This document shows positions 30,140 to 42,498 of a stretch of 64,000 nucleotides of DNA, one piece after another. Under the pieces are notes generated by a model, which ran no database searches, was not told the origin of the DNA, and saw only the letters and a program-made list of their open reading frames with translations. Every line of letters starts with the position of its first letter. Positions within the stretch are counted from its first letter, which is position 1. The position numbers and the translations under genes are program-made. Source of the stretch: a bacterium (GTDB lineage: Bacteria; Patescibacteriota; Minisyncoccia; Phycocordibacterales; CAIZLB01); assembly GCA_037127815.1 (NCBI GenBank), contig JBAXXP010000001.1, positions 232,174 through 296,173 on the forward strand, written 5' to 3'.

Positions 30140-30167
30140 TTGACAATGAAACCTCTTTGAGTATAAT
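30140..30167 (+). promoter_or_regulatory. Sigma70 consensus promoter TTGACA-16-TATAAT, putative 23S-5S rRNA promoter
   Basis: Exact consensus hexamers; shares TATAATTACGAC with the 16S promoter at 40387-40420. Confidence 0.6.
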
Positions 30168-30242
30168 TACGACACCTGAATATGTTAATCGTCTTAAGAG
30201 CGCAAATCGTAATGATGCCTACAAAATAGGCTTATTATGAAA

Positions 30243-30280
30243 GACCGCTCTCTTGAAACGAGAGCGGTCTTTCATTTTGA
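30243..30280 (+). terminator. Strong hairpin GACCGCTCTC-TTGAAAC-GAGAGCGGTC followed by TTTCATTTTG, about 75 nt downstream of the rRNA promoter (terminator/attenuator-like leader element)
   Basis: Direct reading of a perfect 10-bp GC-rich stem plus U-rich tail. Confidence 0.5.
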
Positions 30281-32626
30281 AAAATCGCTCAACTTCAAGA
30301 AACGACGAACTCAGCATTCCTGAAATTTGAAAATTAAATTCTGTACCAGTTTTAGTGGATAACATTCATGTAGTTTAGGCCATGTGGCCGATGCTACCTG
30401 ATACGTATTCTGTTTGGTCTTTTCAATACTGGAGACAGAGCTCCATGAAGTACTACTTTAAGGGTAATGCTGCATGGGGTCGTTATCGTACTTACTCTCA
30501 AGGAGTATGATAACAAAACAGGTAACAAACAAAAGTGATTGTGGTCTTTTTATTTCCTAATAGGAAATATAAGGGCGTATGGTGGATGCCTTGACACAAC
30601 ATAGCGATGAAGGACGCAGCATGGCGGCGATACGCTTCGGGGAGGTGCCTAGCAACCTTTGATCCGGAGATTTCCGAATGGGGAAACCCAAGAGACTTGA
30701 TCTCTTATCTTACTTTTAAGTAAGGTGCGCACCCAGTGAAGTAAAACATTCTAGTAACTGGAGGAAAAGAAAACAAGTACGTAAGTACACAATTTCGTAA
30801 ATAGCGGCGAGCGAAAACGAAATAGCCCAAACCAGACTTCCACATTGGGGATGACATTTTATCGGTTCTTTAATTTATTAGGGAACTATCATTATGCTGT
30901 CTCCTATGTGGCAGTCTGGGGTTGTAAGATAATAATAGGATATTTATATCCAAAGAGTTACAAAATTTTTTGTTAACAGAACGCGTTGGGAAGCGCGACC
31001 AAAGAGGGTGACAGTCCCGTATGTGAAAATAAAAAATCTCTTCTTTATTACTCTTGAGTACCCCGAGACACGAGTGGCTCGGGGGAATCCAGCAGAACTA
31101 ACTGCTAAGGCTAAATATATGTTGTGATCGATAGTGAACAAGTACCGTGAGGGAAAGGTGAAAAGCAGTCCGATGAGGACAGTGAAATAGACCTGAAACC
31201 ATATGCCTACAAGGAGTCAGAGCGGACGTATTTATACGATCCGTCATGGCGTGCCTATTGAAGAATGAGCCAACGAGTTAATATGTATTGCTCGGCTAAA
31301 TCCGCGAGGATGGAGCCATAGGGAAACCGAGTATTAATAGTGCGTCCGTATTACATATTAGACCCGAAGCCAATGCGAGCTATCCCTGGTCAGGCTGAAC
31401 TTTGTCGAAAGACAAAGGGAGGGCCGAACCCGTATGTCGTTCAACTCATTGGGATGAACTGGGGATAGAAGTGAAAAGCTAATCGAGCTTGGTAATAGCT
31501 GGTTCTCTCCGAAATAGCTTTTGGGTTAGCGTCGTGTGTTCCTCTTGGGGGTAGAGCACTGGAAGGACTCGACAGGGAGAAATCTCGCGAGTCCTATCAA
31601 ACTCCGAATACCAAGAACTAAAGCACGGCAGTTAGTCCGTGGGGGCTAAGCTCCACAGGACAAAAGGGAAACAGCCCTAGATCCATATTTAAGGTCCCTA
31701 AATCTATACTAAGTGCACTTAAGGTGGTGGAATTTCTGAGACAATGAGGAGGTTTGCTTAGAAGCAGCAATCCTTGAAAGATAGCGTAATAGCTCACTCA
31801 TCGAGAGATTCTGCGCCGCAGATTCGCGGGGCTAAAGTATAGTACCGAAACTTGGGGTGTCCTACTGCTTCGGCGGTAGGGCGCGGTAGGAGAGTGTTCT
31901 TGTCTGCGATGAAGGGGAAGAGGTGACTCACCCTGGAGCGTCAAGAAGTAAGAATGTTGGCACAAGTAACCACAATCGGAGTGAAAAACTCCGACGCCGA
32001 AAGAACAAGGTTTCCTTCGCAATGATTGTCATCGAAGGGTTAGTCGGGCCTAAGGGGATGGTGAGAACCGAACCCGACGGACACATGGTTAATATTCCAT
32101 GACTTCTGTATACAGTGATGAAATGACGGAGTGTAGTATGAACAGCGCATAATCGGATTTGTGTCCATGCTTTAAGGAAGTTCTCTAGGTAAGTCCGGAG
32201 AGCTGATTTTAATATCAATTCCAAATAGAGTGGAGACGTTAGGGGTTCGCCTCTAAATAATTGTTCAAAGCACGCTTCCAAGAAAATTTTCTAAACTTAT
32301 GTATGCGGAAACCGTACCGAAAACCGACACAGGTGTTCAGGTCGAGTAGACCAAGGCGAACGGGTGAGAGGTCTTCAAGGAACTCGGCAAAAAAGCAGCC
32401 GTAACTTCGGAATAAGGCTCGCCCTCCCTAAAAAGAGGGTTGCAACAAAAGTATCCCTGGCAACTGTTTATCAAAAACACAGCTCCCTGCGAACTCGTAA
32501 GAGTATGTATAGGGGGTGACACCTGACCGATGCCAGAAGGTTAAACGTTGAGGGTACTATCGCAAGGTAGTGCTGATTGATGTAAGCCCTGGTGAATGTC
32601 GGCCGTAACTATAACGGTCCTAAGGT

Positions 32627-32987
32627 TCAGCATTTGTTTTTATTAATGAATGCTGAAGAACTAGGACTGTTCATAGATGTGTTGATAAATAATGAAGAAC
32701 CAAAGAATGCAAAGGAAAATTAGAGCTGCCTGTTTCAGTAAAATGAAGCGTTCAGACTGACTATATGCTGGTAAATCTGTGTGTGAAAAACACTGTAGTA
32801 TCTAACACTACTAAGTTATAAAATTCGAAAGAAAATTATTTCAAGTAAAAATGTGATTAGTGCAGACGATCAGCAGGAAAGACTAAAAAGTAATTTTTAG
32901 AATCCTCAGAAACCAAACGTCAGACTAAATAGTAATATTTAGAAGATAGAGTTCGATCTTTATAGCGATATAAAGTTAACATAAATT
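32627..32987 (+). mobile_element. Group I intron in 23S rRNA at the position equivalent to E. coli about 1931 (between CCUAAGGU and AGCGAAAUUCC); no ORF
   Basis: 361-nt insertion splitting a universally conserved 23S block. Contains group I core elements (CAGACTAAATA R-like, AGAAGATAGAGTTCGATC S-like). Boundaries +/- 2 nt. Confidence 0.7.
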
Positions 32988-33316
32988 AGCGAAATTCCTT
33001 GTCAGGTAAGTTCTGACGCGCACGAATGGTGTAATGACTGGGGAACTGTCTCGAAGACCCGCCCGGTGAAAATGCAATGGAGGTGAAGATGCCTCCTACC
33101 TGCAGCTAGACGAAAAGACCCCAGAAGCTTCACTGCAACTTGATATTGATTGTATGTTTTTACTGCGTAGAATAGATGGGAGAGGTTGAGATCCTGATTT
33201 CGGTTAGGGTGGACTCGTCAGTGAAATACCATTCTTTAAAAATATACATTCTAACCTCGACGGAAAAAACGTCGAGAGACAGTATCTGGTGGGCAGTTTT
33301 AGTGGGGCGCTATCCT

Positions 33317-40386: not shown

Positions 40387-40414
40387 TTGACGGCAAGCGT
40401 TTTATGGCTATAAT
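40387..40414 (+). promoter_or_regulatory. Sigma70-like promoter TTGACG-16-TATAAT, putative 16S rRNA promoter
   Basis: Near-consensus hexamers about 190 nt upstream of 16S; discriminator TACGAC identical to the 23S promoter. Confidence 0.6.
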
Positions 40415-40602
40415 TACGACCACGCCACTGATGATTTTCACAAATCATTTGATTAAATCGCAGGGGGCCGTCCTAGGAATCTCCCAGGAATATTGAGTTA
40501 GGTAAAACTAATAAAATATTTCAGGCATTTCTAAAGACATCTTTGACAACTAAATGACAACCAACAAACGTCCTTTTTTTTGTTCTGTTTGAGTTTAATT
40601 TT

Positions 40603-42062
40603 AGAGTTTGATCCTAGCTCAGGATGAACGCTGGCGACGTGGATAAGGCATGCAAGTCAAACGGGAAGTTTTGCGATTACATCAAGACTCTTCCAGTGGC
40701 GAACGAGGTAGTAACACGTAGGTACGCACCCTTTAGTCGGGAATAACTCATCGAAAGATGAGCTAATACCCGATAGTCTCTTAGGAGTAAAGTTTTTCGC
40801 TAAAGGAGCGGCCTGCGGGATATCAGCTAGTTGGTAGTGTAAAAGACTACCAAGGCTATGACGTCTAGGGGAGGTGAGAGCCTGACCCCCACCGATGGAA
40901 CTGAGACACGGTCCATACACCTACGGGTGGCTGCAGTCGAGAATCTTCCGCAATGGGCGAAAGCCTGACGGAGCGACGTCGCGTGATTGATGAAGTCCTT
41001 CGGGATGTAAAGATCTTTTGTGAGGGAGAAAGTAATTGATAGTACCTCAAGAATAAGGGGTTGCTAAACTCGTGCCAGCAGCAGCGGTAATACGAGTGCC
41101 CCAAGCGTTATCCGGAATTATTGGGTGTAAAGGGTTCGTAGGTGGTCTTATTAGTCTTATGTTAAAGCCTGGAGCTTAACTCCAGAAGTGCGTAGGAAAC
41201 GGTAAGACTAGAGGGTGTGAGAGGTCTGTGGAACTCATGGTGTAGGGGTGAAATCCGTTGATATCATGGGGAACACCAAAAGCGAAGGCAGCAGACTGGC
41301 ACATTCCTGACACTGAGGAACGAAAGCGTGGGTAGCGAATGGGATTAGATACCCCAGTAGTCCACGCCCTAAACGATGTTCATTTGCTTTTCGGAGTATC
41401 GACCCTCTGAGAGGCGTAGCTAACGCGTTAAATGAACCACCTGGGTAGTACGACCGCAAGGTTAAAACTCAAAGGAATAGACGGGGACTTGCACAAGTAG
41501 TGGATTATGTGGTTTAATTCGATGTCAAACGAAGAACCTCACCAGGGCTGGAAATTTAATTGAAAGCTCCCAGAAACGGGAGCCCTCGCAAGACAATTAG
41601 ACAGGTGCTGCATGGTCGTCGTCAGCTCGTGGTTTGAACTGTTCCCTTCAGTGGGGTAACGAGCGCAACCCTCGTCGTGTGTTACAAGTGTCACACGAGA
41701 CTGCCCCCTCTCGGGGGAGGAAGGTGAGGATGACGCCAGATCAGCATGGCCCTTTGATGCCCTGGGCTACACACATAATACAATCGCCACTACAACACGA
41801 CGCAATACCGCGAGGTGGAGCAAATCGTTATAAAAGTGGCGCCAGTTCGGATTGAAGTCTGCAACTCGACTTCATGAAGTTGGAATTACTAGTAATCGCA
41901 GGTCAGACATACTGCGGTGAATACGTTCTCAAGTCTTGTACTCACCGCCCGTCAACTCAAGGGAGATGGGAGTACCCGAAGTCTCGCCTAGTGCGGGCCT
42001 ACGGTAAGTTCATCGACAGGGAGTAAGTCGTAACAAGGCACGGCTAGCGGAAGCTGGTCGTG
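40603..42062 (+). rRNA. rrs: 16S ribosomal RNA (3' end uncertain; canonical anti-SD not seen)
   Basis: AGAGTTTGATCCTAGCTCAGGATGAACGCTGG start, GTGCCAGCAGCAGCGGTAATAC, GGATTAGATACCC, AAACTCAAAGGAATAGACGG, GCTGCATGGTCGTCGTCAGCTCGTG, CCGCCCGTCA, AAGTCGTAACAAGG blocks. Confidence 0.9.
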
Positions 42063-42424
42063 GAACAATTCAATTTGAAAAATGCGTACATGAATTTCAT
42101 GTATTAGCTGAATACGGTTGATCGAACTTAATTTATTAAGCTCAATGAGATTATGCCTCGAGAATGCATAAGGAAGGTATAACCTAAATATACTGCCTCC
42201 TGGGAACAAGGCCAGGCCAAACAGAACAATAATAAGGACGGTTGAGGTTGTCATTTAGTCGCCAAAGTACATATTTTATATGATAAAAGTACTCCGCAAG
42301 CGGGGTTTTTTTATTGCTTTGTTTTTCTTAAAATAGTCTTTAAAATAGACTTGTTTTTAATGGGATAATTTGATACATTATAAACCACAAACAGCAAAGG
42401 TTTGACAAGTCTGTTTGTAAGAAT

Positions 42425-42498
42425 GCGTGTGTAGCTCAGCTGGTTAGAGCACTTCACTGATAATGAAGAGGCCGCAGGTTCGAGTCCTGCCACACGCA
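42425..42498 (+). tRNA. tRNA-Ile (anticodon GAU)
   Basis: GCGTGTGTAGCTCAGCTGGTTAGAGCACTTCACTGATAATGAAGAGGCCGCAGGTTCGAGTCCTGCCACACGCA; cloverleaf with CUGAUAA anticodon loop. Confidence 0.85.

Follow-up and report, generated by a model that had tools for sequence, protein, structure and literature searches.

The 64-kb stretch of bacterial DNA analysed here (hereafter the window) carries its ribosomal RNA (rRNA) genes in separate units, and the leader of the 23S-5S unit probably contains a ribosome-mediated (leader-peptide) transcription attenuator that governs the synthesis of 23S and 5S rRNA. Within this leader, a mini-open reading frame (mini-ORF) overlaps a strand able to pair into an antiterminator hairpin, at the expense of an intrinsic terminator located upstream of the 23S gene (Table 1), and this architecture is conserved in relatives. 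A hairpin about 75 nucleotides (nt) after the 23S promoter had already been taken for a possible attenuator when this DNA was first inspected (the original prediction); this proposal is supported by the present work and extended by a conserved ORF and an antiterminator/terminator switch. Neither the leader ORF nor the antiterminator had been mentioned at that time, nor had two introns and a missing anti-Shine-Dalgarno (anti-SD) sequence, described further below.

The window has a G+C content of about 36%, and its sequence places the source, an ultra-small bacterium, within the Candidate Phyla Radiation (CPR)/Patescibacteria, as one of the Paceibacteria (Parcubacteria) type. Among GTDB species representatives, the best matches of its SecD protein (79-86% identity) were indeed found in uncultured freshwater metagenome-assembled genomes (MAGs), named L001-L004 and L021 here, followed by a tier at about 45-52% identity made up of Nomurabacteria, Kaiserbacteria, Yonathbacteria, Wolfebacteria and 'Paceibacterota' MAGs. 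These relatives are among the GTDB genome loci retrieved via SecD. Further 23S loci came from a metagenome collection, in which a clade-typical 23S motif located about 90 nt inside the gene was used as a query and yielded 119 loci. The 5' regions of the 23S genes in the scanned loci were 68-93% identical to that of the window.

Architecture of the 23S leader

The leader hairpin, first placed at 30243-30280, is real and had been located about rightly. Its arms (30240-30252 and 30260-30272) enclose a loop at 30253-30259 and are followed by a T-rich tail reaching 30279, so that a G+C-rich stem-loop (8-bp GC-rich core) precedes a U-tract (UCUUUCAUUUUG), as in intrinsic terminators. The complete leader of the window folds into this terminator with -36.9 kcal/mol (z = -5.1), and no shuffled sequence was as stable. 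The terminator is kept in L001 and L021, whose 23S leaders share 93% identity with that of the window over their whole length. In the four distant genomes L005, L013, L024 and L028, the leader sequence is unrelated but the layout is the same: a promoter close to consensus comes first, then a mini-ORF and, about 70-100 nt further on, a GC-rich hairpin with its T-run. This layout was evaluated in 112 loci offering at least 300 nt 5' of a Paceibacteria-type 23S gene, using strict automated criteria (a promoter matching at least 10 of 12 positions, and a terminator 30-200 nt past the -10 box). It was found in 81 of them, which represent 69 distinct leader sequences. The equivalent hairpins of these 69 leaders have T5-T8 tails and lie 45-100 nt past the -10 box, the hairpin starting 70-87 nt past it in most cases. 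Loci missed by the strict filter were missed because of imperfect stem ends or variant -35 boxes: all 12 misses with a promoter that were printed from the promoter on carried the element by eye, as did many others.

Such constancy bears on the possibility that the hairpin is a terminator or insulator of the upstream MscS-like gene, since it does sit between a protein gene and the 23S gene, or else a chance structure. A separate terminator (30007-30034) already follows the MscS-like gene, and is set apart from the hairpin by the rRNA promoter. Chance, for its part, would have to account for a stability that no shuffle reached and for a promoter distance of 70-87 nt that remains constant over about 70 diverged leaders. 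Both versions of this explanation are barely credible. Separately, a 151-amino-acid ORF ending just 5' of the hairpin (29785-30240) was considered and rejected as spurious: it has no Pfam match, and extends over sequence of the MscS-like gene, of that gene's terminator and of the rRNA promoter. It was also observed that an MscS-like protein with a C-terminal ..FGLGGK(E/D)AA.. is encoded directly 5' of the 23S leader in the window and in many diverged metagenome loci, and synteny therefore reaches upstream of the putative attenuator.

The position of the element is specific as well. A composite scan for promoter, mini-ORF and terminator, applied to both strands of the window and of 199 loci (3.9 Mb), returned 77 hits, all but about three of which lay directly 5' of a 23S gene; the window contained a single one, at 30140. 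The same scan found no such element ahead of a 16S gene. An equivalent attenuator was looked for in the 16S leaders and not found, these leaders presenting a short hairpin followed by boxA, with no mini-ORF/terminator. Among the remaining hits, one in L175 (about position 720, + strand) is 5.4 kb away from the 23S gene, encodes the peptide MKQPRCLRRARE and scores well for antiterminator energy; another gene could be preceded there by a second attenuator of the same type.

The leader also bears a reading-frame signature. ORF, boxA and pairing tests were performed on a non-redundant set of 63 leaders (58-62 in some tests). In 53 of the 63, the first ATG is found 6-20 nt past the -10 box and opens an ORF of 9-15 codons, as compared with 3.0 on average, and 8 at most, in dinucleotide shuffles. 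The typical element has its ATG about 13 nt past the -10 box and an ORF of 10-14 codons. The distance from this ATG to the CGG triplet takes the values 21, 24, 27, 30, 33, 36 and 39, and is a multiple of 3 in 42 out of 53 leaders (p = 9e-12); length changes by insertion or deletion have therefore kept the frame intact. When read in the ATG frame, 43/62 leaders have their first stop 0-12 nt past the antiterminator strand, versus 5/62 and 2/62 for the other two frames. In L001 and L021, the frame and stop of the window's mini-ORF are kept despite five amino-acid changes. Frequency above the null, spacing in threes and a frame-specific stop thus show that these leaders possess the short ORF, conserved as such, that characterizes leader-peptide attenuators.

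By contrast with the frame, the peptides themselves vary. They typically end in K-R-x(1-3) and are otherwise specified by AT-rich codons (e.g., MNSLKNLFKKRKR, MLKTLNFKKRQG and MSSQKNPKIKRKR); because peptide sequences are not conserved, the act of translation, rather than its product, seems to matter. The antiterminator core is read as CGG in most lineages, a codon that accounts for only 3 of the 623 Arg codons of the window. No run of regulatory codons for a product of the operon was found in these leaders, which usually contain this single rare CGG, and the leader of the window contains none. Concerning initiation, the spacing between the mini-ORF ATG and the -10 box resembles that of the ordinary genes of the window, which lack a Shine-Dalgarno (SD) sequence, and an SD-less start fits a 16S rRNA deprived of anti-SD.

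Folds, permutation energies and covariation agree in indicating that the antiterminator and the terminator are mutually exclusive. The transcript of the window, when truncated to 30174-30262, folds into the antiterminator (-27.3 kcal/mol, z = -5.5), and transcripts truncated after the terminator loop do so in 55 of 62 loci. The long antiterminator hairpin is composed of the 3' end of the ORF, a variable inner hairpin (P1) and the 5' arm of the terminator. A hairpin at the P1 position is general, with a mean minimum free energy of -6.3 versus -3.1 in shuffled sequences and a lower native value in 50 of 58 loci. At its 3' end the ORF usually reads ..A/G-G-CGG.. (often ..AAG CGG..); these codons are complementary to the terminator 5' arm and loop and change together with them, as illustrated by the matched core pairs GGGCGG/CCGCCC, GAGCGG/CCGCTC, CGCAAGCGGCG/GCCGCTTGCA and TTTCAAAGCGG/CCGCTTTGAA across loci. 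In line with this, the mean duplex energy reached -12.4 kcal/mol with the leader's own terminator 5' arm and loop, versus -9.5 kcal/mol with foreign arms, and the summed energy lay about 10 standard deviations beyond 2000 permutations, none of which attained the native value. Covariation was evaluated in an ungapped alignment for which the invariant GCGG and CCGC cores served as sole anchors; 66.9% of its cells pair (59.3 +/- 1.1 when shuffled) and 64 are compensatory (35.6 +/- 4.8). The covariation score was 0.175 versus 0.086 +/- 0.011, with slid controls at 0.125 at most, and sliding the partner by 1-3 columns lowered pairing to 33-40%. Finally, the antiterminator 5' strand overlaps the ORF, with only 0-9 nt (mode 6) between its end and the stop codon that follows; in most loci its end is located 28-37 nt, and the stop about 20-30 nt, before the terminator stem. 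In the window, it corresponds to codons 3-8 of the mini-ORF.

Proposed mechanism and its alternatives

The following sequence of events may be proposed. RNA polymerase would start near 30174 (predicted), and the nascent leader would bear a near-leaderless mini-ORF (30182-30229). With no ribosome on it, segment 30189-30203 would pair with the terminator 5' arm and loop into the long antiterminator hairpin enclosing P1. This would block the terminator and let the polymerase proceed past the boxA-like motif into the 23S-5S genes. A ribosome translating the mini-ORF, or terminating on it, would hold the antiterminator strand in its mRNA channel; once this strand is sequestered, the terminator at 30240-30279 would form and transcription would stop after about 105 nt. 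Plentiful idle or leader-stalled ribosomes would then lead to less 23S and 5S rRNA, i.e., to negative feedback. The leader would in that case be a cis-acting ribosome sensor of Paceibacteria, in which translation of the mini-ORF by free or stalled ribosomes strips away the antiterminator and aborts 23S-5S transcription at about 100 nt; this more specific proposal is a tentative one, close to evenly balanced without quite reaching that point. Such a sensor might rebalance 50S versus 30S output in bacteria in which the 1:1 stoichiometry of a linked operon and SD/anti-SD initiation have been lost.

The same ORF and terminator architecture could also be used with the opposite sign, as in the pyrBI/pyrE leaders, where a leader ORF precedes an intrinsic terminator and the closeness of ribosome and polymerase is read out. 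The leading ribosome, trailing the polymerase, would block the terminator, and efficient translation would result in read-through and more rRNA. The window itself offers some room for this, as only 10 nt separate its stop codon (30227-30229) from the extended terminator stem, the base of which a terminating ribosome could reach. Blockade of the pyrBI/pyrE type requires the ribosome to reach the terminator, however, and is unlikely in most loci because their stop codon is too far from it (about 20-30 nt upstream, beyond ribosome cover). Moreover, such a mechanism has no need for a dedicated antiterminator strand covarying under the last codons. We regard this opposite sign as improbable.

Two mutually exclusive hairpins are also the standard design of switches set by a protein or a small ligand, in which case the ORF would be incidental. 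Transcription attenuation by ribosomal proteins is documented (PMC1865079; PMC4538822), and the B. subtilis infC-rpmI-rplT leader controlled by L20 and the rplJL leader controlled by L10(L12)4 share with the 23S leader the principle of a leader switch through which a ribosome component feeds back. Those leaders, however, contain a conserved binding structure mimicking rRNA and act on ribosomal protein mRNAs; no such structure was found in the 23S leader, where the data point to a translated ORF. No nucleotides are conserved apart from the GCGG/CCGC core and the helices, and P1 varies in both sequence and length, so that no aptamer or protein site appears to be available for recognition. A search of the 23S leader against Rfam gave no family match (best E = 0.89), and no conserved aptamer of the riboswitch kind was seen beyond the helix cores. 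A protein- or ligand-set switch would, in addition, leave the ATG offset, the steps of three and the frame-specific stop unexplained, and is accordingly considered unlikely.

Whichever signal sets the switch, read-through of the leader terminator appears from the sequence to be the only route to the 23S gene. No second promoter was found between the terminator and the 23S gene in the window, and only few weak matches were found in the other loci. A boxA-like motif begins at a median of 29 nt past the terminator (57 loci); in several loci it starts 0-17 nt past the T-run, thus leaving no room for a promoter. Its consensus gaaCTTTGAcAAtTgAAT was recovered 3' of the terminator, with at most one mismatch, in 37/63 loci versus 0/58 upstream control regions. 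These data also bear on the idea of an independent tiny gene, producing a micropeptide or an sRNA (small RNA) of about 105 nt beside a 23S gene that would be served by an unrecognised promoter or by constitutive leak. Promoter, ORF and terminator indeed make up a self-contained unit, and the peptides are basic at their C-terminus, ending in K-R-(K/R). Placement and orientation before the 23S gene are nevertheless constant across the clade, the boxA-like motif follows 0-50 nt past the terminator with no promoter-like site there, and the peptide is unconserved, yet its overlap with the covarying antiterminator is conserved. We give little credence to this tiny-gene explanation.

The position of boxA decides against another part of the original prediction, namely a leader regulated by antitermination in the Nus/boxA sense. 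boxA-like motifs do occur in both the 23S and the 16S leaders. In the rrn system the Nus target boxA has to be transcribed before the terminator, however, and the motif of the window (30324-30349) comes after it, as it does in essentially all loci. It is still untranscribed when termination is decided, so a Nus/boxA complex cannot act on the leader terminator; furthermore, the 16S leaders have boxA with no such terminator or ORF. It is thus very unlikely that the hairpin is a checkpoint overridden by a Nus-factor/boxA rRNA antitermination complex. The resemblance to rrn antitermination (boxA/boxB/boxC; NusA, NusB, NusE, NusG and SuhB) lies in the motif itself (CUUUGACAA, versus CUCUUUAACAA in E. 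coli) and in the processing stems that adjoin it in both rRNA leaders of the window. The difference is that the terminator of the window precedes boxA, and the putative attenuator would constitute an additional, earlier layer. To our knowledge, such a layer is not known from the rrn operons of E. coli or B. subtilis.

Several points weigh against the ribosome-mediated attenuator as described above. The case is built on sequence data throughout, with a predicted transcription start site, and the direction of regulation is inferred from geometry alone. Per-position covariation in the ungapped alignment was moderate (z 2.6-3.4), because many leaders contain a bulge or a register shift, and the energy-based permutation test was taken as the stronger measure. 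A foreign terminator arm still gave an antiterminator fold in about 46 of 62 loci, because the GCGG/CCGC core is common to nearly all of them. The leader peptides show no sequence conservation, and most of their codons are AT-rich. The lineage of the window is atypical, with no CGG, an antiterminator strand at codons 3-8 and a stop 25 nt further, inside P1; in about 10-15% of leaders, the stop falls just before the core or the core is out of frame. As the sequences are phylogenetically related, shuffle statistics overstate their independence, and this kinship is only partly addressed by the slid-partner and other-frame controls. Lastly, attenuation requires sufficiently fast ribosome loading on the nascent rRNA leader.

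The closest known relatives of the proposed mechanism are the attenuators of amino-acid operons (trpL, hisL, pheL, leuL, thrL and ilv), which likewise possess a short 5' ORF and two exclusive hairpins between which the position of the ribosome decides. Their target is a biosynthetic mRNA, however, whereas that of the 23S leader is an rRNA operon. The 23S leader has two competing hairpins only, with no region 1:2 pause or anti-antiterminator hairpin. It lacks the run of cognate codons, in place of which it usually has one very rare CGG, and its initiation must be SD-independent, unlike that of trp-type attenuators. Because its ORF overlaps the antiterminator itself, translation is predicted to cause termination, whereas in trp it is the absence of translation that does so. 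The 23S leader thus appears to behave like the leader-peptide attenuators without being a classical member of this group, given the missing codon run and the opposite default state. In the literature searched, we found no report of leader-peptide attenuation acting on an rRNA operon or occurring in CPR bacteria, and we know of no such attenuator on an rRNA operon.

Textbook control of rRNA synthesis takes place at the promoter (guanosine tetraphosphate (ppGpp)/DksA, the initiating nucleoside triphosphate and Fis) and through Nus-dependent antitermination, and the ribosome feedback of Nomura has long been debated with no direct cis mechanism. If the attenuator is confirmed, ribosomes would gauge their own abundance or activity and feed back directly on the elongation of rRNA transcription, rather than on the promoter. 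This would explain how ribosome production is coordinated in bacteria that have tiny genomes, a reduced regulatory repertoire and rRNA genes split apart. It would also be evidence that, in these bacteria, near-leaderless initiation without an SD can operate on a regulatory time scale. The element, compact (about 110 nt) and defined by its sequence, would then also be a marker and annotation feature for a very large uncultured clade.

Transcription units and gene order

The two rRNA units had been described as lying on one strand, 6 kb apart, with 23S-5S first and 16S-tRNA-Ile second, and this was confirmed by Rfam, ARAGORN and Pfam. Taking as unlinked those genes with a 16S-23S gap above about 1.5-2 kb that contains non-rRNA genes, the window qualifies: 6.07 kb and five protein genes separate the end of the 5S gene (34523) from the start of the 16S gene (40596). 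Among these five, the proteins encoded at 34762-35517 and 39493-40215 gave no family match in a Pfam search. When synteny was checked in related genomes, as had been recommended, 23S and/or 5S genes were found 5' of secD on the same strand in 20 of the GTDB loci retrieved via SecD, and 16S genes 3' of secD in 11, the full 23S-5S...secD...16S order recurring in 9 independent contigs with both flanks present. Misassembly was considered and ruled out on the basis of this same order in independent MAGs and contigs. Because it repeats across independent loci, the arrangement is old and not an assembly artefact, and it is common to lineages with about 50% SecD identity. The origin originally suggested for it, an ancestral operon that was later split, is plausible.

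That CPR bacteria have unlinked rRNA genes is known from earlier publications and is not new. Patescibacteria are listed among the clades whose rRNA genes are unlinked without exception (Brewer et al., bioRxiv 10.1101/705046), and unlinked genes were reported in 27 of 34 circularised CPR genomes, the 16S gene being nearer to 5S than to 23S in about half of the circularised genomes (Lui et al., 2021, PMC8172020). The window agrees with both studies in having its 16S apart from its 23S-5S genes, and matches the 16S-near-5S order of the latter. These papers deal with gene distances only; promoters, leaders, terminators, the conserved SEDS-secDF block that separates the units and any attenuator are absent from them.

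Transcription signals are in line with this separation. Near-consensus promoters at 30140-30167 and 40387-40414 are present letter for letter as originally described, and both are kept at matching positions in L001, L002, L003, L004 and L021, the 23S promoter of L001 and L021 having the very same hexamers at the corresponding position. Within a 14-kb region, the two promoters are the best and the third-best sigma-70 matches, and no more than three sites of the whole window answer a strict TTGACN-N15-18-TANAAT search. Promoter-like sites in the region are no more numerous than expected by chance (37 versus 38.7); the rRNA promoters thus stand out by their quality and conservation, not by site count. 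The extension TATAATTACGAC, presented as shared by the two units, does follow both promoters, in the window as in its close relatives; this part of the claim does not extend to distant lineages, which have TATACT and then unrelated sequence. As a separate observation, a second TATAAT-like box (AGCCGTATAATTAATG, 30107-30112) is located 28 nt 5' of the 23S -35 box and is invariant in L001 and L021, and a loosely similar GGGCTATAAGTGATA lies at about 40331-40337, roughly 50 nt 5' of the 16S -35 box, and is less conserved than the box on the 23S side. These boxes may represent a second promoter, or else a site bound by some factor.

Independent transcription is suggested in the sequence by the promoters at 30140 and 40387 and by the terminators at 34556, 39438 and 42291, and the separate rRNA units postulated earlier indeed each possess a promoter, a boxA-like motif, a processing stem and an intrinsic terminator. 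The terminator-like hairpin that had been noticed between the 16S and tRNA genes was located at 42291-42315; it is conserved, and a terminator also follows the 16S gene in L009, L014 and L015. This modifies the view that tRNA-Ile stayed with the 16S gene. It did so by position; as regards transcription, this conserved terminator and the invariant block containing the TGgGATAAT box intervene, which points to a unit of its own, and tRNA-Ile is probably transcribed separately from 16S. Three or four separate stable-RNA transcription units (rrl-rrf, rrs and tRNA-Ile) would be the best explanation of these signals.

Table 1. Coordinates of the features of the 23S leader and of its surroundings (positions in the window; bp, base pairs).
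Feature	Position	Strand	Description
MscS-like gene	29288-29980		Upstream of the 23S leader; Pfam MS_channel match
MscS-like gene intrinsic terminator	30007-30034	+	5' of the 23S promoter
23S-5S promoter	30140-30167	+	TTGACA-16-TATAAT (12/12), then TACGAC; predicted start about 30174
Leader mini-ORF	30182-30229	+	MLIVLRAQIVMMPTK; 15 codons and TAG; ATG 14 nt past -10; no SD
Antiterminator 5' strand	30189-30203	+	UCGUCUUAAGAGCGC; pairs with terminator 5' arm and loop
Hairpin P1	30217-30231	+	GCCUAcaaaaUAGGC; between antiterminator strand and terminator; holds the ORF stop in the window lineage
Leader intrinsic terminator	30240-30279	+	13-bp stem AAAGACCGCUCUC/GAGAGCGGUCUUU, loop UUGAAAC, tail CAUUUUG
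23S leader boxA-like motif	30324-30349	+	AAUUUGAAAAUUAAAUUCUGUACCAG; downstream of terminator
23S processing stem, 5' strand	30524-30544	+	Pairs with 34320-34338; invariant in L001 and L021
23S rRNA	30556-34308	+	3753 nt, with two group I introns inside; Rfam RF02541, 2228.8 bits
23S insertion 1	32627-32986	+	Group I intron with no ORF; RF00028 at 32726-32975, 31.8 bits, E = 2e-5, below gathering score
23S insertion 2	33318-33680	+	Group I intron with no ORF; RF00028 at 33367-33638, 70.2 bits (gathering score 50)
23S processing stem, 3' strand	34320-34338	+	Pairs with 30524-30544
5S rRNA	34415-34523	+	Rfam RF00001, 70.6 bits
5S-end intrinsic terminator	34556-34590	+	Closes the 23S-5S unit
Five protein genes between rRNA units	34762-40215	+	Hypothetical, SEDS, SecD, SecF, membrane protein
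SEDS (FtsW/RodA) gene	35566-36708	+	Pfam
secD promoter	36808-36835	+	11/12 match
SecD gene	36848-38347	+	Pfam
SecF gene	38371-39351	+	Pfam
secF-end intrinsic terminator	39438-39468	+	From sequence
16S promoter	40387-40414	+	TTGACG-16-TATAAT (11/12), then TACGAC
16S leader boxA-like motif	40538-40573	+	CAUCUUUGACAACUAAAU; boxA copy 40538-40562; overlaps 16S stem 5' strand
16S processing stem, 5' strand	40549-40573	+	Pairs with 42236-42259
16S rRNA	40596-42075	+	Rfam; 3' tail GGAACAAUUCAAUU, with no CCUCC anti-SD
16S processing stem, 3' strand	42236-42259	+	After conserved 160-nt trailer
16S-end intrinsic terminator	42291-42315	+	Kept with compensatory changes in L001 and L021
Extended -10 box TGgGATAAT	42361-42369	+	Inside an invariant 45-nt block with variable flanks; probable tRNA-Ile promoter
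tRNA-Ile(GAU)	42425-42498	+	Rfam and ARAGORN; followed by terminator 42533-42562

Smaller features of these units were also observed. The 160-nt trailer of the 16S gene (42076-42235) is near-invariant relative to L001 and L021 and contains a compensatory hairpin (UACAUGaauuuCAUGUA versus CAUGUGaauuuCACAUG); it may serve in the maturation of 16S or be left over from the spacer. The 23S-5S spacer of the window (106 nt) has no tRNA. In relatives, one or two tRNA or tRNA-like genes, for Arg(CCU), Thr(CGU) and Lys(UUU), the anticodon loop being odd in some of them, occupy this place (L021 6665-6838, L002 803-977, L003 299-376 and L015 3795-3867). Downstream of the 5S terminator and ahead of the next gene, positions 34636-34735 form a perfect 25-bp inverted repeat (AAAGATAAACACAAGCTATTTAGAG and its reverse complement) with 50 nt between the arms. 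It is not found in L001 or L021, where the gene directly follows the terminator, and it looks like a small lineage-specific insertion resembling a miniature inverted-repeat transposable element (MITE).

Introns, translation initiation and further observations

The 23S gene of the window is interrupted by two insertions of about 360 nt that match the group I intron family RF00028 and are absent from a close relative, insertion 1 from L021 and insertion 2 from both L021 and L001. Insertions are known to be prevalent in the rRNA genes of CPR bacteria (PMC11270868), with which two 23S introns are consistent. Other 23S insertion sites were observed in relatives, after window position 33921 in L001 and after 34014 in L005 and L013. 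A further insertion of about 580 nt, holding a weak Rfam group-II-D1D4-1 match, was seen in the 3' domain of the 16S gene of L001 (13236-13813) and L021 (15148-15725), and is absent from the 16S gene of the window.

The 3' end of the 16S rRNA (42057-42075) reads GGAACAAUUCAAUU, not GGAUCACCUCCUUU, and thus has no CCUCC anti-SD, which is likewise missing from the 16S rRNA of L001, L021, L009, L014 and L015. In line with this, no SD sequence was found upstream of any of the 41 ORFs of the window, many of which present a -10-like box 7-13 nt before their ATG, as in leaderless transcripts. Loss of the anti-SD has been reported in a subgroup of Parcubacteria (Tsurumaki et al., 2022, PMC9297842). 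A relocated anti-SD, suggested by a CCUCC at 42196-42200 in the 16S trailer, was rejected: it is not kept in L009 or L014, and no gene of the window has an SD.

Finally, the gene located after tRNA-Ile (42595-44160) encodes a protein of 521 amino acids, in which an N-terminal HTH_3 (Cro/C1-type) domain is fused to a full-length domain of the EPSP-synthase/MurA type, an unusual combination.

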